From an uncultured Candidatus Saccharibacteria bacterium (lineage in GTDB: Bacteria; Patescibacteriota; WWE3; UBA101185; UBA10185), in NCBI GenBank assembly GCA_964530415.1, contig CAZHAM010000002.1, forward strand, positions 1,649 to 33,816: a DNA stretch of 32,168 nt. Direction: 5' to 3'. Under the pieces are notes generated by a model, which saw nothing but the letters and a program-made list of their open reading frames with translations, searched no databases and was not told where the DNA came from. A program made the translations under genes and the position numbers. Below, piece by piece: positions 1 through 31,101 of this stretch. How positions within the stretch are numbered: the first letter of the stretch is position 1; every line of letters starts with the position of its first letter.

Positions 1-863
1 AGCTCAGTCTTCTCATCCTCAACCTCACGCTCGATATATTGAAGATATCTCTCGGTAGTAGAAACACGCTTGTGACCTGCAATCTTAGATAAATGCAAAA
101 GATTCACACCCATAGATAAGTGGTGAGCCACAAAAGTGTGTCTCAAGTCATTAACTTTGGCATTTTCTACACCGGCTAGGTTGAAATAGCGGTTTATGGT
201 CGATCTTATGTTTCTGACTAAAAGTGAGTTTCCTGTTTTGGTAATAAACAAATGGACAGCGTTTTCGATTTTTACTCTTTCTTCGTCAATGTATTTTCTT
301 ATTGAATCCACAACAGCTCTATTTAAAGGAATTACTCTGGTTTCTCTATTATTTTTCTTTTTTACAGTTAATTTCCCGGTTCCGTCTGTAAACTCAATAT
401 CTTCAAGTCTAATATCGGCAAGTTCTGAGATAGTAACACCTGTTTGAAGCAAGACCTCAATCATTGCGTATGATCTCAAATCATCTTTTGCAGCGTCTCT
501 GAGAGCTCTGTATTCAAGTTTTGAGAGGATTCTAGGCTCTTTTGTTGCTATTTTGGGGTGTTTTAAGAACTCAGCTGTATTTAGAGCTATGATCTCGGTA
601 TTGTGTAAAAACTTAAAAAATGTCTTTGTGGCATTTGTTTTTCTTGAGATAGATTTGGGAGTGTACTCTTCTTTAGCGAGTTTTTTCATAAAGTTTTCAA
701 GATGAGTAAGTTCTACATCTGAAACACCGGAAACACCCTCTTTTTCAAGGAAATTAATTAACTGTTCTATATCTTTACTGTAAGCAATAAGAGTAGAGGA
801 CGACTTTCCCTCACTACCTAAGTGCTTAATAAACTTAGTATGAGCTTCATTTAGTTTTATCAT
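1..863 (-). CDS. Tyrosine recombinase, XerC/XerD-like (C-terminus runs off the window edge)
   Basis: Absent from the ORF track because it is open at the edge. My reverse-strand translation from ATG (863..861) gives MIKLNEAHTKFIKHLGSEGKSSSTLIAYSKDIEQL... (SAM-like N-domain) and ...VNDLRHTFVAHHLSMGVNLLHLSKIAGHKRVSTTERYLQY (HxxR box plus GH..STT..Y catalytic Tyr box). Confidence 0.85.
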   Translation of the reverse strand, partial: MIKLNEAHTKFIKHLGSEGKSSSTLIAYSKDIEQLINFLEKEGVSGVSDVELTHLENFMKKLAKEEYTPKSISRKTNATKTFFKFLHNTEIIALNTAEFLKHPKIATKEPRILSKLEYRALRDAAKDDLRSYAMIEVLLQTGVTISELADIRLEDIEFTDGTGKLTVKKKNNRETRVIPLNRAVVDSIRKYIDEERVKIENAVHLFITKTGNSLLVRNIRSTINRYFNLAGVENAKVNDLRHTFVAHHLSMGVNLLHLSKIAGHKRVSTTERYLQYIEREVEDEKTE

Positions 864-964
864 ATGTTTTTTGTTGCAATGAAAGGGCAAAAGGGTGTTT
901 ACTTAAATTTCTAATACGGTTAATATACCACCCAATAATTCTATAGGCCATAATACCATTGGGC

Positions 965-2030: not shown

Positions 2031-2106
2031 GCCAATGTAGCTCAGTGGTTAGAGCGGGCGTTTCATAAGCGCTAGGTCGGCGGTTCGACTCCGCCCATTG
2101 GCACCA
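2031..2106 (+). tRNA. tRNA with CAU anticodon (elongator Met, or Ile2 if lysidine-modified)
   Basis: Acceptor gccaatg/cattggc, D arm gctcagtggttagagc, anticodon loop ttCATaa, T arm ggcgg-ttcgact-ccgcc, encoded CCA. Confidence 0.9.
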
Positions 2107-9785: not shown

Positions 9786-10781
9786 CTAAAATCCTTTTAA
9801 GAATTTAATAATCTTTTCTTCGATGCGGTGAGAGGCGAGTCCGTATTTATTTATTAAGTCTGAGTAAGACCCGGATTCACAAAAAGTATCTTCGACACCA
9901 ATGATAAGCATTTTCGTCGGAAGATTTTGTGATAAAACTTCGGCGACCGCACTTCCTAATCCATTGTATATTTGATGTTCTTCAATTGTAACTACTTTTT
10001 TAGTTTTTTTTGCGGATTCAATTAATGCTTTTGCTTTTAGAGGTTTGATAGTTGGAATTGCAATTACGTCAGAGCAGATATTAAATTTTACTTTTAAGTT
10101 TCTCGCTGCAATTAGTGCCTGTTCTGTTATAGGACCTGTCACAAAAATCGATAAGTCATCGCCTTCGGAAAGAGTATATGTGTCGCCGATTTCAAATTCA
10201 GTTTTGATGGTTGTAATTGATTTTGTTTCTTCACGTGAAAGTCTTAAGTAAACAGGTCCTTTATGTTCCGCTGCCGCAGTCGTTGCTTTAACGGCTTGAT
10301 TGTAATCTATTGGACTGATTAGTGTTAGATTGGGGAGCACGCGCATTGTAGCTAGATCTTCGAGTGCCTGAGCTGTTGGGCCGTCTGTTGCTGCCGATAA
10401 ACCTGAGTGTGTTCCTACGATTTTCACATTTGCCTCGGATAAACAAATAGATACGCGTATTTGTTCCCAGTTACGCCCCGGGCTAAATGATGCAAAAGAC
10501 GAAACAAATGGGATTTTTCCGTTTAATGCAAGACCGGCAGCAATGCCCGCCATGTTTTGTTCAGCAATTCCAACCTCAATAAATCTCTCAGGATATTTTT
10601 TTGCGAAGTTATCAACTTTTGTTGATTCTGTTAAATCGCCCGTTAGTACAACTATATCTTTATTTAGTTCAGCAGCTTCTAAAAGTCCATCGCCATATCC
10701 CGATCTAGTTGATTTTTTTTCAACCTCTCCAGAGAAAAACCGAGAATTTAAATGCAGTTCTTTATTGAGCATGGGCAGCAT
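9786..10781 (-). CDS. Transketolase, C-terminal subunit (pyrimidine-binding plus C-terminal domains)
   Basis: RSGYGDGLLE, ERFIEVGIAEQNMAGIAAG and GTHSGLSAATDGPTAQALEDLA match the Pyr/C-terminal half of split transketolases. Confidence 0.9.
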   Translation of the reverse strand: MLPMLNKELHLNSRFFSGEVEKKSTRSGYGDGLLEAAELNKDIVVLTGDLTESTKVDNFAKKYPERFIEVGIAEQNMAGIAAGLALNGKIPFVSSFASFSPGRNWEQIRVSICLSEANVKIVGTHSGLSAATDGPTAQALEDLATMRVLPNLTLISPIDYNQAVKATTAAAEHKGPVYLRLSREETKSITTIKTEFEIGDTYTLSEGDDLSIFVTGPITEQALIAARNLKVKFNICSDVIAIPTIKPLKAKALIESAKKTKKVVTIEEHQIYNGLGSAVAEVLSQNLPTKMLIIGVEDTFCESGSYSDLINKYGLASHRIEEKIIKFLKGF

Positions 10782-10794
10782 TTAGCGCGAGCAG

Positions 10795-11391
10795 CTAATT
10801 ATTTTGTTCGTCTGAGTTCGAAGTTTCGACTACTTCATCTTCGTTCTCTTCTGTATCAGGATCTTCACATTCGTCGATCTTTTTAATTCTATCGAAATCA
10901 ATACTGAACTCTGATTTTGAAATTGCCACTAAATCAACCGCGATGTGTTTATCAATTTCAGGGTTGCAGGATTCTCCCGGGAAAGTTTCTTCAATCGAAA
11001 CGATTAGAGTTTGTTTCTCTTTGTCCACAAAAAGTTTTTTGATTTTTACTTCGTGTCCAACCGGGTCCTCAGTTTCAGAAGAGACGCCGACCAGTACTTC
11101 TTTGTTAAAATCTATCGAATCTTTTAATGTAACCAAACCTGTTTTATCTATCAAATTCAGAAATTCGTTTAACTGATTTTGATCTGAAATTACTAATCTT
11201 TGTTTTTCAATATTGTCGTCAGTGTAAATAACAGTAGGGAATCCTTCCAATCTTCTTATCTCGGGACCTCTGTTAAAAATCTTTGAAAAGTCTAACTCAC
11301 CTTGAATCAAAAAGTACCCGGCGCCGATTATTATTGCCAATATAATAAATAAGGGTACGAGGCTCATATTTATTTGTGCTCTTTTAGTCAT
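10795..11391 (-). CDS. Membrane-anchored hypothetical protein with an acidic tail (possibly PrcB-C-like)
   Basis: 198 aa with a signal-anchor helix (LVPLFIILAIIIGAGYFLI), a beta-rich core (FNKEVLVGVSSETEDPVGHEVKIKKLFVDKEKQTLIVSIEE) and a D/E-rich C-terminus. The family assignment is a weak recollection. Confidence 0.6.
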   Translation of the reverse strand: MTKRAQINMSLVPLFIILAIIIGAGYFLIQGELDFSKIFNRGPEIRRLEGFPTVIYTDDNIEKQRLVISDQNQLNEFLNLIDKTGLVTLKDSIDFNKEVLVGVSSETEDPVGHEVKIKKLFVDKEKQTLIVSIEETFPGESCNPEIDKHIAVDLVAISKSEFSIDFDRIKKIDECEDPDTEENEDEVVETSNSDEQNN

Positions 11392-12265
11392 GATCGTATT
11401 TTATTTTTCCTTCAAAAGATCTCAGCTGCTTAAGTGCTTTAGTTGCTTGATCTTTATTAGGTGGCAATCCGTGCCATTCAAATTTGTACTCCATAAATTC
11501 TACACCCTTGCCGGGTATAGTGTACGCTATCACTGCTGTGGGTTTATGCCCTACAGCTTCCGCCATTGAAAAGGCGTTTAATATCTCTTCAATATTATGA
11601 CCGTCAACCCCGATCACATTCCAGTTAAATGCCTCAAGTTTTTTCCTCAAATTCTCCAAAGGCATTATCTGTTCAGTATATCCGTCGATCTGAATGTTGT
11701 TTCGGTCAATTATCCAGGTTAAGTTAGAAAGTCCGCGATTCGGTGCAAACATAGCTGCTTCCCAAATCTGACCCTCATTTAATTCTCCATCTCCGGTTAA
11801 ACAGTAAACTCTAAACTTCTTGTTATCCATTTTACCCGCGATTGCAGCTCCGATTGCCTGAGACAAACCTTGACCCAGTGATCCGCTCGAACTTTCTAGG
11901 CCGGGTAATTTTACATTTACGGGGTGTCCCAGTAGTCTAGAGTTTAATTTGCGAAGTGTCCACAGCTCTTTTCTGTCGAAATAACCGCGCTTTGCCAAAG
12001 ATGCATACAGAATCGGACAAATGTGGCCGTTTGATAAATAAAATCTATCGCGGTCTTTCCATTTAGGATTTTTAGGATCGATATTTAATTTGTTAAAGTA
12101 TAAAGCTGCAAAAATATCCGCTGTTCCTAAAGAGCCTGCGCTGTGACCAGATTCCGCTTCCAAAAGCATTTGAATAACATCTTGTCTCAATTCGTTAGCA
12201 ATCAGTTCTAAGTTCGTGATTTCATTGTTTCGCAAGTATGCGCGTTTAGAGCTTTTTGCAGGCAT
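11384..12265 (-). CDS. Transketolase, N-terminal (thiamine-diphosphate-binding) subunit
   Basis: SGHSAGSLGTADI, LSNGHICPILYA and CLTGDGELNEGQIWEA (TPP motif). The tracked ORF extends to 12328, but the first 21 codons (MYILALSSNLPHLHKPHILLL) do not look like protein, so I place the start at the MPAKSS Met (12265). Confidence 0.88.
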   Translation of the reverse strand: MPAKSSKRAYLRNNEITNLELIANELRQDVIQMLLEAESGHSAGSLGTADIFAALYFNKLNIDPKNPKWKDRDRFYLSNGHICPILYASLAKRGYFDRKELWTLRKLNSRLLGHPVNVKLPGLESSSGSLGQGLSQAIGAAIAGKMDNKKFRVYCLTGDGELNEGQIWEAAMFAPNRGLSNLTWIIDRNNIQIDGYTEQIMPLENLRKKLEAFNWNVIGVDGHNIEEILNAFSMAEAVGHKPTAVIAYTIPGKGVEFMEYKFEWHGLPPNKDQATKALKQLRSFEGKIKYDHD

Positions 12266-12335
12266 TAAAAGTAGTATATGGGGTTTATGAAGATGTGGCA
12301 AATTTGACGAAAGTGCTAAAATATACATATCTAAC

Positions 12336-16432: not shown

Positions 16433-18226
16433 TCAACCTTTTTTAACTTTTTGAGCTTTAAACATGCCCGATAACTCTTTAATTGTTGTCGCTTCTTCAG
16501 CTCTTTTGTCTTCTCTAAAATTTATTAATCTCGGAAACCTTAGAGCGTAGCCTGTCGAGTGTGTAGGCGAGACCGAAATTTCGTCAGCGCCGATTTCTAC
16601 AACTATTTTTGGGGCCAATATTACGTCTGGTTTAAATATTTTATGAATCTCAACATTTGCGGGTATTTTGGTCACAACATACTTATCCGCCATAGATTTA
16701 AGTTTGACCCAATCCTCGTCTTTTAAACCGGTTCCGACCTTTGTGACGGTTTTAAATGTTTCGTTCTTTTCATCGTAAATTCCAACTAAGAATCCTCCGA
16801 TGCCAAACTTCGATCTCACGCCCTTGCCGTAGTAATACCCAAGCACTACGCAGTCCATACTGTCTTGTATGAGAGTTTGGTCGGCTCTTTTAAGTTTCAC
16901 CCACGAATGAGTTCTTGCCCCTGCCTGATAAGAGTCGCCGGGCTTTTTAACAATAAGTCCTTCAAGGTTTTTGGCTACAGCCACGTCATAGTATTCTTTG
17001 AGTTTTTCAAATTCGTCTGTTTCAAGATAATCGTCAACAACGATAGTTTCACCTTTGCCGACTATTTTGGTTAAAATTGCTTTTCTTTCCCTTAAGGTTT
17101 TGTCTATCATGCTTTTACCGTTTAAGTACAAGATATCAAAAACAAAGTATTTTAAAGGAATCGTTTTTGCGAGTTCCTCGACATTGTGTTTGCGTTTTCT
17201 TTGAATAGTTTCCTGAAAGGGTAAAAAAGCCCCTGTTTCTTTGTTATAGCCGATTGCCTCGCCGTCCAAGATCACCGAATCCGCCTTTATCTGTTTTTTA
17301 GCTGCTTCGACTAAATCGGGGTATTGATGGGTAGTTTCCTCAAGATTTCTGGTGAACGTTTTTAAGAGTATCTTGCTTTTGTCGCCGCCAAAAAGGCTTG
17401 TCTGCTCACTTTCTTTGTTCTTTACCTGCTTATTCTTATCCATATGAAGTTGTACGCGTGTTCCGTCAAATTTAAACTCTGCCCACACCACGCCCATTTT
17501 TCCGATAACCTCATCCATACCGCCTTCGAGCCTTTGGGCCTTTTGCGAGAGTACGGGAACCCCCGTTTCGATAGTTATGTCCTTTAGTCCTTTAATTCCT
17601 TTTGTTTTAATTAATTTCGCAATCAATCCGATATCAGGATGGATGCTATATACCCCCTCAATTTCTTCACGGAGGGACTTATCCTTTTTAAGTAGGTTAG
17701 AGAGGGCGTCCAAAACCGTTAGTTCTGTAAAACCAAGTCTTGTTGTTCCCAGAATTATTCTGATGGCAAATTTAGCCGATAATTTGTCGAGTTCTTTTAA
17801 AAGTTTTGCTGTTTTGGCGACTTTAAGTTCCTGAGAACCGGAGCCTTCTGATTGGGCAATTTCTACAAAGCGTGCGTGTATCTCAGAAATTGTTATATTA
17901 GAAGCTTTGTGGACGGGAGTTAACTCATACGCGACACTGCCTAGATCGCCGTTTTCGCTGTACAACTTTTGTATTTTTTCCAGGATATCGCTGTTTTCTT
18001 TTGTTGCATAAGCACTTGCAAATATTCTAATCACCATTTTTTCGGCGATGTTAAACTTTTCGCTTTCAAATGGCGCTCTTAGGTATCCCGAGGAGAGGTA
18101 CAGTGCTATGTCGGTTTCCTCTGGTTCGAGCTCGGCGATTAATTCGGCTAAAATAGAGGTAATCTCGAGTCTTTTTGGCGTGTCTTCCAACCTTTGTAAA
18201 AACTCGCATAATCTTGAAAATTTCAT
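16433..18226 (-). CDS. ATP-dependent DNA ligase, three-domain archaeal/eukaryotic Lig1-like type
   Basis: 597 aa with an N-terminal DNA-binding domain, adenylation motif I AEFKFDGTRVQLH (KxDG), motif EGLIVKK, motif V/VI region WVKLK, and a C-terminal OB domain. Confidence 0.9.
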   Translation of the reverse strand: MKFSRLCEFLQRLEDTPKRLEITSILAELIAELEPEETDIALYLSSGYLRAPFESEKFNIAEKMVIRIFASAYATKENSDILEKIQKLYSENGDLGSVAYELTPVHKASNITISEIHARFVEIAQSEGSGSQELKVAKTAKLLKELDKLSAKFAIRIILGTTRLGFTELTVLDALSNLLKKDKSLREEIEGVYSIHPDIGLIAKLIKTKGIKGLKDITIETGVPVLSQKAQRLEGGMDEVIGKMGVVWAEFKFDGTRVQLHMDKNKQVKNKESEQTSLFGGDKSKILLKTFTRNLEETTHQYPDLVEAAKKQIKADSVILDGEAIGYNKETGAFLPFQETIQRKRKHNVEELAKTIPLKYFVFDILYLNGKSMIDKTLRERKAILTKIVGKGETIVVDDYLETDEFEKLKEYYDVAVAKNLEGLIVKKPGDSYQAGARTHSWVKLKRADQTLIQDSMDCVVLGYYYGKGVRSKFGIGGFLVGIYDEKNETFKTVTKVGTGLKDEDWVKLKSMADKYVVTKIPANVEIHKIFKPDVILAPKIVVEIGADEISVSPTHSTGYALRFPRLINFREDKRAEEATTIKELSGMFKAQKVKKG

Positions 18227-25657: not shown

Positions 25658-26179
25658 ATGGACTTAGTTAAAAGAGAATCAGCGCTTTGGTCATATTTAA
25701 CGTCTGACTTGCGAGAACTAATAGAAGACGGAGAAAGACTTGTTGTATATATAACCAGAGAAGATCAAAAAGGAGATATCAGTGACTTTTCGTTTGCAGT
25801 TTTTCCGTTTGCCAAAGCATACGAAGGTTTTTTAAAAAAACTTTTCTTTGATTTAGGGATGATATCTCACGAAGATTATTATGGAGACGAAATAAGAATC
25901 GGGAGAATTTTAAATCCAAGATATATAAAAGAGCACAGCAGCGTAGCAAAAAGAATGTTTGGTCACTCTCAAGCCCGCAAAGCACTATCTGAAGAGCTCT
26001 GGGAGACCTGGAGAATAGGTCGAAATCGAGTATTCCATTACTTCCCCCATAACTTTAGAAAACTCAGCTACGAAGAAGCTATGGACATTGTATACGAGAT
26101 TGTAAGGTCTATGACTAAGGCCGTTGATATGTGCGATATAGAGGTTACCAGTTTAGCCGATATTAAGAAGGTCAAATAA
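25658..26179 (+). CDS. HEPN-like hypothetical protein (Rx4H motif)
   Basis: 173 aa, all-helical in appearance. AKAYEGFLKKL is followed late by WRIGRNRVFHYF, which resembles the RNxxxH(x)Y core of HEPN/DUF86-type domains. It starts 1 nt after the ATPase stop. Confidence 0.45.
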   Translation: MDLVKRESALWSYLTSDLRELIEDGERLVVYITREDQKGDISDFSFAVFPFAKAYEGFLKKLFFDLGMISHEDYYGDEIRIGRILNPRYIKEHSSVAKRMFGHSQARKALSEELWETWRIGRNRVFHYFPHNFRKLSYEEAMDIVYEIVRSMTKAVDMCDIEVTSLADIKKVK

Positions 26180-29683: not shown

Positions 29684-29757
29684 AGCACAGTTATATAAAA
29701 AACAGACTCGAGTACAACCGCCTAAGCTCTACCTAAAATAGATAATTTCTCTCCACA

Positions 29758-29766
29758 TGATAGAAT
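29758..29766 (+). promoter_or_regulatory. Candidate extended -10 promoter element (TGaTAGAAT)
   Basis: TG at 29758..29759 and TAGAAT at 29761..29766, 16 nt upstream of the ATG at 29782. No clear -35 or SD. Confidence 0.3.
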
Positions 29767-29781
29767 CAGTAAGAAAAAACT

Positions 29782-31101
29782 ATGATCCAAGAACTAAAAA
29801 AATCACTACCGGACCTTAAAGAAGCAGAAATTGAAGGCATTTTGCATATTCTATATTCGGTAGAAAATCTAACAAACTCCGAGCTTATAACCTTAACAGG
29901 ACTTCCTAAAGAGGTTTTGCGACAGTTTAAATCAAGAATCTCTACTTTACTTAAGGATTCTCAGTCTGAAGAAATCGAGCTAAATACTGATGGGGCCGAG
30001 AAATTAAAGAATCTAAACCCACAACCTTATAAATGGACGCTGTTATCGTATGAAACCGATGATGCTAAAAATCTAGTAGAAAAGTTAGACGATGTTAGAA
30101 ATACATACAAAATTTCGCCCAAAAGAGAACTAGACCAGTTTTTTGCTACAACCGAAACATCCGTGAACAAGGCAATGATTTTAAAAGATAAAGGCGTGGT
30201 TACAGGAAAAAGAATCGGGTTAATAGGCGACGATGATCTGGTATCGATCGTTTTAGGTTTAGCCGGTGAAAATTACCAAAATGTGACGGTTGCTGATGTA
30301 GACACCGATCTCCTCAAATCAATTTCTAAGATCTCAGGCGACATGGGTATAAGGAATGTTCAAACTATCGAATACAACTGTAAAAACAACGTTCCCAACA
30401 CTCTGTTTGAAAAATTTGACGTAATTATGACAGATCCGCCCTATACAAAAGCTGGGATCGAATTATTTTTAAACAGAGCCGTCCAGATGCTATCTAAAAG
30501 CCCGTCATACGAAGGAAAATACATTCTTCTGTTTTTTGGCAATAGTTTTAAGAGTCCCGAGAAGTATTTGAAAGTTCAGGAGGTGATAAATAAGTTTAAC
30601 CTGGTAATTGAGGACAGAATTGACAAGTTTTCCAGATATTATGGCGCAGAATCTATCGGAAACGCATCAGCTTTGTATATTTTAAAAACTACAGCATCCA
30701 CAGAGCCGCTTGCCGAAGAATTACTCTCCAGCACAATTTACACGTATGAAAATCAAAAAGAAGAGAAATTCCCGTTTGTAGACCACGTTGTTATCAAAGT
30801 ATTTGACGTTCCGGATCAAATTGTTAAATCAAAAGCGCAAATCACAAAGGCAATGGGGGATTTTTGCAACGAGCATAAGCTAAAAGTGGTAGACAACAAG
30901 ATAACTGAGTTTAAAAACGGCGGTTTGACGCTCACTTTTATATTGGCCAACTCAAATTTAGTGGTTCATACCTGGCCCGAATTTAACGCTGTGCACTTAG
31001 ATTTGATTACTTGTGCGCCAATTCATAAAAAGTCCTCGATACCTTATAGTATTGAGAAATTCCTAAAATCAGGTAAAATAGAGGCTACCTTTGTCAATTG
31101 A
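29782..31101 (+). CDS. Fusion protein: DUF43/BpsA-like aminopropyltransferase domain plus SpeH-type S-adenosylmethionine decarboxylase domain
   Basis: N-terminal wHTH-like region, then a Rossmann domain with LIGDDDLVSI and IMTDPPYT (as I recall the DUF43/branched-polyamine-synthase motifs). The C-terminal ~120 aa align by eye to small pyruvoyl AdoMetDC (GLTLTFILANSNLVVHTWPEFNAVHLDLITCA versus [32 protein letters not shown]). Confidence 0.7.
   Translation: MIQELKKSLPDLKEAEIEGILHILYSVENLTNSELITLTGLPKEVLRQFKSRISTLLKDSQSEEIELNTDGAEKLKNLNPQPYKWTLLSYETDDAKNLVEKLDDVRNTYKISPKRELDQFFATTETSVNKAMILKDKGVVTGKRIGLIGDDDLVSIVLGLAGENYQNVTVADVDTDLLKSISKISGDMGIRNVQTIEYNCKNNVPNTLFEKFDVIMTDPPYTKAGIELFLNRAVQMLSKSPSYEGKYILLFFGNSFKSPEKYLKVQEVINKFNLVIEDRIDKFSRYYGAESIGNASALYILKTTASTEPLAEELLSSTIYTYENQKEEKFPFVDHVVIKVFDVPDQIVKSKAQITKAMGDFCNEHKLKVVDNKITEFKNGGLTLTFILANSNLVVHTWPEFNAVHLDLITCAPIHKKSSIPYSIEKFLKSGKIEATFVN

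Follow-up and report, generated by a model that had tools for sequence, protein, structure and literature searches.

The DNA analysed here, hereafter the window, is a stretch of 32,168 nucleotides from an uncultured Candidatus Saccharibacteria bacterium (assembly GCA_964530415.1, contig CAZHAM010000002.1, positions 1,649 to 33,816, forward strand). Near its end lies an uninterrupted open reading frame (ORF), 29782..31101 (+), which begins with ATG and encodes 439 residues followed by a stop codon (49.6 kDa). Profile searches and a structural model confirm the assignment of its predicted product as a BpsA-type aminopropyltransferase fused to a class 1b S-adenosylmethionine decarboxylase (AdoMetDC) proenzyme. 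BpsA is the branched-chain polyamine synthase, whose aminopropyl donor is decarboxylated S-adenosylmethionine (dcSAM). The features of the ORF are as follows, residue numbers being those of the protein and Tk-BpsA denoting the Thermococcus kodakarensis enzyme.

29782..31101 (+): whole fusion ORF (ORF scan, Pfam, homologs)
29782..30117 (+): N-terminal helical domain, residues 1–112, counterpart of the BpsA N-terminal domain (5xnc_A alignment from residue 1; model helices within 2–109)
30118..30759 (+): BpsA_C Rossmann-fold catalytic domain, residues 113–326 (PF01861; 2qm3, 5xnc)
30226..30237 (+): GDDD motif, residues 149–152, aligned with the GDDD of Tk-BpsA (Gly157–Asp160)
30430..30447 (+): TDPPYT, residues 217–222, in which Asp218 pairs with Tk-BpsA Asp225 (sequence alignment)
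30736..30780 (+): acidic inter-domain linker IYTYENQKEEKFPFV, residues 319–333 (low model confidence, conserved pattern, ends of split genes)
30784..31089 (+): AdoMet_dc class 1b pyruvoyl decarboxylase domain, residues 335–436 (PF02675; 1tlu, 1vr7)
30949..30954 (+): predicted self-cleavage site Asn390/Ser391, with Ser391 as the predicted pyruvoyl precursor (aligned with E62/S63 of 1tlu)
30967..30981 (+): HTWPE, residues 396–400, in which His396 corresponds to T. maritima His68 (1tlu alignment)
31012..31014 (+): Cys411, corresponding to T. maritima Cys83, a catalytic and processing residue (1tlu alignment)

The initial annotation of this DNA, made by eye, had described a DUF43-family half at residues ~1–320 and a small pyruvoyl-dependent AdoMetDC at ~325–439, and both halves are borne out. 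The PF01861 (BpsA_C) profile matches residues 113–326 with an E-value of 8.1e-37 and 127.2 bits (gathering cut-off 27), and PF02675 (AdoMet_dc) matches residues 335–436 with an E-value of 1.3e-17 and 64.5 bits (gathering cut-off 25); both thus score above the gathering threshold. The motifs GDDDL (149–153), TDPPYT (217–222), ANSN (389–392), HTWPE (396–400) and TCA (410–412) were all found where they had been placed. The nearest sequences of solved structure are the Pyrococcus furiosus protein 2qm3 (E 4e-24) and Tk-BpsA 5xnc (E 6e-24) for the transferase half, which is 21–23% identical to BpsA, and the Thermotoga maritima AdoMetDC 1tlu/1vr7 (E ~4e-5) for the decarboxylase half. An AlphaFold2 model of the 439-residue protein, built with 44 homologs in the alignment, has a mean predicted local distance difference test (pLDDT) score of 90.3 and a predicted TM-score of 0.75. 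Residues 1–327 of the model superpose on Tk-BpsA 5xnc_A (chain 0..346) with a Z-score of 28.4 over 311 aligned residues (Foldseek E 5.9e-24), and the Thermus BpsA 6j27_C gives a Z-score of 27.3. Residues 329–439 superpose on T. maritima AdoMetDC 1vr7_B with a Z-score of 15.3 and a root-mean-square deviation of 2.6 over 110 aligned residues. The single-polypeptide architecture is therefore supported by profile and structure, and the comparative evidence given below supports it as well.

When 5.8 billion proteins were searched through a word index, 257 matched at E ≤ 1e-3. Both Pfam domains are present in all 120 clusters listed (419–473 residues), these being the best 120 of the 257; the survey for this architecture thus yields at least 120 clusters that hold both domains. 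Apart from the window protein's own database twin, the listed homologs are 47–56% identical to it and come from independent assemblies, on contigs of up to 903 kb. Candidate division WWE3, Saccharimonadales and 'Patescibacteria group' are among the sources named for them, and the labels given to them in databases are 'bis-aminopropyl spermidine synthase family protein' and 'predicted methyltransferase'. Among 401 genomes drawn evenly from the window's phylum, 28 hold a match of any kind and 11 a full-length fusion; ten of these 11 belong to the window's own family (this genome counted), and one, with 41% identity, to another family of the same class. A sample of 41 genomes from the window's family was also examined, in which the fusion was recognised from the length of the open frame around the AdoMet_dc match. 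Such a match is present in 33 of the 41 genomes and sits in an open frame of 429–481 residues in 27 of the 33. We take these 27 frames to be fusions, and six of them, this genome's included, are confirmed as full-length matches in the phylum sample. The fusion is real and conserved in its lineage.

The processing site of the decarboxylase half departs from the usual Glu-Ser-His (E-S-H). Alignment with 1tlu (HMMER) pairs Glu62 with Asn390, Ser63 with the retained Ser391, and His64 with Asn392, in agreement with the ANSN site described initially, in which the Ser is kept and the flanking Glu and His are replaced. In the AlphaFold2 model, the predicted cleavage site is a two-residue turn between strands 381–388 and 391–398. 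Conservation was tabulated over 121 fusion rows, in which the window protein is counted twice (P0001 and its database twin P0002). The site tripeptide is NSN in 76 rows, SSN in 18, TSN in 18 and QSN in seven, with NSS and ASN found once each. The site Ser is present in all 121 rows and is followed by Asn in 120; Glu precedes it in none of the 121, its place being taken by N, S, T, Q or A. HTWPE is intact in 113 of the 121 rows and the position of Cys411 is Cys in every one, so that the conservation claimed earlier for HTWPE and for the Cys of the TC motif holds. In the 44-row alignment, which consists of the window protein and 43 of the 120 listed homologs, G381, S391, H396, W398, E400, H405 and C411 are invariant.

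In E. coli SpeD, cleavage takes place at a Lys-Ser bond, and the chemistry uses the carbonyl of the preceding residue rather than its side chain. Relatives of the 115-residue decarboxylase domain were collected by an exhaustive HMMER search, which gave 679 at E ≤ 1e-3, and the best 150 were examined. Among these 150 are 116 short (<200 residues) SpeD homologs, in which the residue ahead of the Ser is Glu in 59 cases and Q, S, T, A, N or K in 53. The sites of SpeD partners encoded beside unfused BpsA-like genes are also varied (three QSH, and one each of TSH, ASH, SSH, ESS and ESH). In D. phosphitoxidans SpeD2, the pyruvoyl Ser229 is preceded by Thr, and the S229A substitution abolishes activity (PMC10407285, Fig. 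S5). The initial premise that E-S-H is required was therefore too strong, given that Glu occurs in only 59 of the 116 short homologs and that a validated site is Thr-Ser. By sequence, the Asn-Ser site looks like an ordinary variation of a conserved clade, and the non-canonical residues that precede the Ser in this clade (N, S, T, Q or A) form a naturally occurring set for the study of pyruvoyl formation.

According to PMC10407285, S63, H68 and C83 of T. maritima AdoMetDC are essential to processing and catalysis, and the Ser, His, Cys and Gly that correspond to S391, H396, C411 and G381 are shared by every functional SpeD homolog. The same source describes one Pro that all bona fide AdoMetDCs have kept and that their arginine decarboxylase derivatives have lost. 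We infer that Pro399 of HTWPE is this diagnostic residue, as it is the only Pro of the region. The initial annotation had left it as a question whether the domain processes itself or acts as a non-catalytic dcSAM- or SAM-binding module; with Ser391, His396, Cys411 and Gly381 invariant in the 44 rows, the sequence evidence leans clearly to self-processing.

Within the transferase half, all 121 fusion rows have both GDDD and DPPY. In Tk-BpsA, the aminopropyl amine of dcSAM is held in position by Asp159 and Asp160 of GDDD, and the acceptor amine is activated by Asp225, Glu259, Tyr290 and Tyr316 (PMC12979288). Sequence alignment pairs Asp218 and Tyr286 of the fusion with Asp225 and Tyr290 of Tk-BpsA. 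The archaeal enzyme also has a flexible acidic C-terminal cluster (residues 339–345) that serves as the aminopropyl carrier of a ping-pong reaction (PMC12979288). The linker of the fusion contains the acidic residues E323, E327 and E328, and the pattern [ED][ED][KN]FP is found in 94 of the 121 rows; model confidence is lowest at its residues 321–330 (pLDDT 61). Because the alignment with 5xnc_A ends at model residue 327 and chain residue 346, the acidic linker would lie roughly at the position of the BpsA carrier tail, which is a positional hint only.

A likely origin of the fusion can be read from genomes in which the two genes are still separate. A separate BpsA-like gene of ~310–330 residues is present in 10 of the 401 phylum genomes, from which 11 split-form loci of 4–5 kb each were fetched. 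The BpsA-like ORF is present in all 11 loci, and a SpeD homolog accompanies it in eight. In four of these the SpeD gene follows the BpsA-like gene in the same direction and overlaps its end (L016, L017, L020, L021), in two the pair is arranged tail to tail (L018, L019), and in two the genes are 0.8–1 kb apart (L022, L023). The separate BpsA-like genes terminate right after a conserved 'IYT', which corresponds to Ile319-Tyr320-Thr321 of the fusion, immediately before the linker. A tree of decarboxylase domains was built with FastTree from 154 domains, after six of 160 rows had been dropped because of an absent motif or their length. The tree is poorly resolved, with 88 of its 150 inner branches open, and only the clade with support 100 is used here: it unites 23 of the 26 BpsA-fused decarboxylase domains (SH-like support 100). 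The three BpsA fusions outside this clade, P0200 (ESH), P0222 (QSH) and P0250 (TSH), may therefore be independent fusions. Judged from these sequences, the history is that of a classical gene pair turned fusion: the fusion arose in Patescibacteria from an adjacent, often overlapping pair of bpsA-like and speD-like genes, which is still unfused in sister lineages. Together with the neighbouring split pairs, the fusion makes a strong Rosetta-stone link of the BpsA/DUF43 family with dcSAM, in bacteria beyond the known thermophiles.

Two further fusions of the decarboxylase domain were seen among the 32 longer relatives scanned. P0163 joins a PP-loop ATPase (QueC/ThiI-like) with AdoMet_dc in 400 residues and has an N-S-H site, and P0248 joins SpeE (Spermine_synth) with a C-terminal AdoMet_dc in 498 residues and has a K-S-S site.

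We propose, with a probability of roughly 0.7, that the protein is a bifunctional enzyme in which a self-processing AdoMetDC makes dcSAM and the tethered BpsA module uses it to aminopropylate an amine. The domain identities, folds, conservation and gene-pair origin set out above are the basis of this proposal, and all of its chemistry is drawn from homology. The proenzyme would cut itself at Asn390/Ser391, aided by His396 and Cys411, to give an alpha chain of residues 391–439 (5.5 kDa) with a pyruvoyl group at its N-terminus and a beta chain of residues 1–390 (44.1 kDa). The beta chain would comprise the whole BpsA module together with the decarboxylase's first half, and would stay interleaved with the alpha chain in one beta-sheet. 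The pyruvoyl group would decarboxylate S-adenosylmethionine (SAM) to dcSAM, which the BpsA-type Rossmann domain would bind via GDDD. The aminopropyl group would then pass to an amine acceptor held by Asp218 and Tyr286, with release of methylthioadenosine. The acceptor is probably a polyamine, such as spermidine, putrescine or agmatine.

The genome that carries the fusion (575 kb in 44 contigs, estimated 93% complete) encodes other proteins related to polyamine synthesis. A second, stand-alone SpeD homolog of 140 residues lies on contig 23 (L001:1398-1820 (+)) and passes the TIGR03330 cut-off with 90 bits. It has the canonical E-S-H, with the site 'IIQES/HVSIHTFAKRG..IYSC' (the slash marks the site), and is without the Pro and Glu of HTWPE; this makes it a candidate for a decarboxylase of arginine or another amino acid and not an AdoMetDC. 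Its Q, T, F and Y residues could suggest an ornithine decarboxylase (SpeDC), an assignment that Fig. S5 of PMC10407285 does not support; its sequence is more reminiscent of the SpeDA (arginine decarboxylase) type. Directly before it lies a gene for a 305-residue multi-pass membrane protein with weak similarity to amine and amino-acid transporters. A strong stand-alone SpeD homolog is present in only 12 of the 41 family genomes and is lacking in 20 of the 27 genomes with a fusion-length frame, so the fused domain would be the only candidate source of dcSAM in most relatives. In addition, a fused MFS/spermidine-synthase protein of 501 residues (NF037959, 263 bits) lies on contig 38 (L003:839-2344 (-)), and a SpeE-like protein of 242 residues on contig 21 (L004:1450-2178 (-)). 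In the family sample, a full-length MFS_SpdSyn is found in four of the 41 genomes, two of which have a stand-alone SpeD, a loose co-occurrence, and a SpeE-like frame of ~230 residues is matched in 39 of the 41.

Several observations weigh against a working bifunctional enzyme. The NCBIfam equivalog TIGR03330 scores the fused decarboxylase domain at 54.3 bits, under its cut-off of 75.65; both residues that flank Ser391 deviate from the canonical E-S-H, and no characterised precedent was seen for Asn at the +1 position. The catalytic Cys is missing in two of the eight split-form SpeD partners, L017:1317-1769 (-) ('DLLTGN') and L023:1268-1618 (+) ('DILSSR'), which may represent an inactive, non-catalytic partner in some relatives. 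In the transferase half, the alignment has gaps around the pairing of Tk-BpsA Glu259 with Phe256, and Tyr316 lies beyond the alignable sequence. Moreover, the fusion has DPPY where BpsA has DPPE, and in this it resembles amino-methyltransferases. DPPY is a motif of amino-group methyltransferases. The supply of substrate is a further difficulty. SAM synthetase (PF02773, PF00438, PF01941) was not found in the 93%-complete genome, and in the family sample bacterial MetK (C-domain) was detected in one of the 41 genomes and archaeal MetK in none. Neither the PNP/MTA-nucleosidase family PF01048 nor the agmatinase family PF00491 was found in this genome; all these absences rest on draft genomes and are not proofs. 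With no SAM synthetase and no PF01048 member detected, both the supply of substrate and the disposal of methylthioadenosine count against the proposal. The lineage does encode SAM-using enzymes despite having no SAM synthetase detected in 40 of the 41 family genomes. Since SAM synthesis is not detectable in the lineage, SAM is probably scavenged or imported, and the acceptor amine is probably scavenged as well.

Part of this evidence would fit a C-terminal domain that does not process itself and serves as a prozyme-like module for SAM/dcSAM binding or for regulation, with dcSAM coming from elsewhere. The N-S-N in place of E-S-H, the score below the TIGR03330 cut-off, the Cys-less split-form partners and the second SpeD homolog in this genome all point in that direction, and degraded, non-cleaving SpeD domains are known in Lentisphaerota fusions (PMC10407285). 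Against it, the 121 fusion rows show little or no variation at Ser, His, Cys and Gly, for which a dead domain would have no use, whereas the degraded domain of V. vadensis has lost such residues (PMC10407285). The 20 family genomes with a fusion-length frame and no strong stand-alone SpeD would have no other source of dcSAM, and the stand-alone copy of this genome is without the Pro and Glu of HTWPE. We regard a non-processing module as improbable.

It is likewise improbable, in our estimation, that the decarboxylase is active and the N-terminal domain aminopropylates something other than a free polyamine, for example an amine of a protein, lipid or nucleic acid, or is a methyltransferase. Such a role would account for the DPPY motif and for the lack of conservation at Tk-BpsA Glu259; the N-terminal half also has weak Pfam matches to the N6-adenineMlase and RsmD-like families, and METTL5 and Trm11-type enzymes are the structural matches that rank next after BpsA (Z 15–21). 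Fused MFS/SpdSyn proteins have reportedly been discussed, in a Biochem J paper of 2019, as polyamine-independent users of dcSAM. However, the BpsA chains reach Z-scores of 27–28, aligned over all 327 residues, as compared with at most 21 for the methyltransferases, and GDDD, which holds the amine of dcSAM in BpsA, is present in every fusion row. The link to a SAM decarboxylase, by fusion or operon, argues that dcSAM rather than SAM is the co-substrate.

A third possibility is that the C-terminal domain is a neofunctionalised, SpeDA/SpeDC-like arginine or ornithine decarboxylase, which would supply the acceptor and not the donor. SpeD homologs with ornithine or arginine decarboxylase activity are widespread, the candidate phyla radiation (CPR) included, and a validated SpeDC has Thr before its pyruvoyl Ser (PMC10407285), as do the 18 fusion rows with TSN. 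The fused domain, however, keeps HTWPE with the Pro of bona fide AdoMetDCs, the diagnostic positions being those inferred from Fig. S5 of PMC10407285. The SpeDC pattern of that figure, 'Q..ETS/LISGHFAN...Y.D.FSC', is absent, and the SpeDC-diagnostic Gln, Thr, Phe and Tyr are not found when the fused 'FILANS/NLVVHTWPE...LITC' is set against 'TQLIETS/LISGHFAN...VFSC' (PMC10407285). Without a source of dcSAM, an aminopropyltransferase would also serve no purpose in those 20 of the 27 genomes where no other SpeD homolog is present. We consider this reading very improbable. Finally, an assembly or frameshift artefact joining two genes, named in the initial annotation as what would undo the fusion, has next to no chance of being correct, although sister lineages encode the halves in two distinct genes that overlap, because all 120 listed clusters, from independent assemblies, hold both domains in one protein, the 429–481-residue frame recurs in 27 of the 41 family genomes, the linker is conserved, and full-length matches occur in the phylum sample.

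The neighbours of the fusion ORF in the window are housekeeping genes, namely mnmA, an M23 peptidase, a P-type ATPase, pentose-phosphate genes and DNA repair genes, and no polyamine-linked genes were seen among them. Upstream of the ORF lies one weak feature.

29739..29766 (+): promoter-like site TAGATA-16 nt-TAGAAT, with TG before the second box, 16 nt upstream of the ATG (9/12 matches, weak)

Promoter-like sites in this region are not above chance, with six in the region as compared with 4.5 ± 2.3 in shuffled sequences. Elsewhere in the window, a tyrosine recombinase gene stands at the start (3-890 (-)), and two tRNA-Met (CAT) genes (1466-1539 and 2031-2106 (+)) lie around a 112-residue ORF with no family match. 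Transketolase is encoded as separate N- and C-terminal genes with an intervening 198-residue ORF that belongs to no Pfam family (9786-10781 (-), 10795-11391 (-), 11384-12328 (-)). An ATP-dependent DNA ligase of the archaeal/eukaryotic type (597 residues, 16433-18226 (-)) is present in this bacterial genome, and a 173-residue ORF (25658-26179 (+)) has weak matches to RNase LS/RnlA-like HEPN toxins (E ~4e-4), below the cut-offs.

The polyamine metabolism of the candidate phyla radiation is almost unstudied, and in the literature searched only PMC10407285 ties CPR bacteria to polyamine enzymes. As a bifunctional AdoMetDC and aminopropyltransferase, the fusion would irreversibly consume SAM in a lineage that is seemingly unable to make it, which in turn points to SAM scavenging. 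A bolder picture, which we think unlikely, is that these ultra-small Patescibacteria, unable to make SAM, use the fusion at moderate temperature to produce branched or long-chain polyamines from SAM and an amine that are both scavenged, with the acidic linker (E323, E327, E328) acting as a covalent swinging arm between the decarboxylase and transferase sites. If that were true, BpsA-type chemistry would be no speciality of thermophiles. The literature searched contained no description of a BpsA–AdoMetDC fusion and nothing on branched-chain polyamines in Patescibacteria. The BpsA review PMC12979288 makes no mention of such a fusion or of Patescibacteria, nor does PMC10407285 mention BpsA; for DUF43/PF01861, the matches listed concern only unrelated DUF43xx families.

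Compared with the BpsA enzymes of T. kodakarensis and Thermus, the transferase half has the same two-domain fold, the PF01861 domain and GDDD, with Asp218 and Tyr286 aligned with Asp225 and Tyr290, and, at roughly the place of the BpsA tail, an acidic and probably flexible segment after the Rossmann domain. It differs in having DPPY instead of DPPE and no conserved equivalent of Glu259, and in that the C-terminal tail is here the linker to a fused decarboxylase. The hosts also differ: branched polyamines are predominantly thermophilic according to the review (PMC12979288), whereas the fusion belongs to a small-genome lineage of Patescibacteria. Compared with the class 1b AdoMetDCs (SpeD/SpeH, T. 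maritima 1tlu/1vr7), the decarboxylase half shares the fold and keeps Ser63, His68, Cys83 and HTWPE; Glu62 and His64 are both replaced by Asn, and the predicted beta chain carries a transferase of 326 residues. The SpeD1-SpeD2 fusions and the SpeDA and SpeDC enzymes belong to the same domain family, and there the fusions process correctly and Thr is allowed before the pyruvoyl Ser (PMC10407285). Those proteins consist of two joined decarboxylases or have ornithine or arginine as their substrate, while the domain described here keeps the AdoMetDC-type HTWPE. The closest parallel in architecture is the AdoMetDC-aminopropyltransferase fusion of Ca. Pelagibacter, for which both activities were demonstrated in E. 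coli delta-speD and delta-speE strains (PMC11107197). Both proteins hold a class 1b AdoMetDC and an aminopropyltransferase in one polypeptide, but in Ca. Pelagibacter the AdoMetDC is N-terminal and the transferase is of the SpeE type (PF01564; PMC11107197), whereas here the order is reversed and the transferase is of the BpsA type. The BpsA–AdoMetDC fusion is thus a new form of the known AdoMetDC-aminopropyltransferase fusions.

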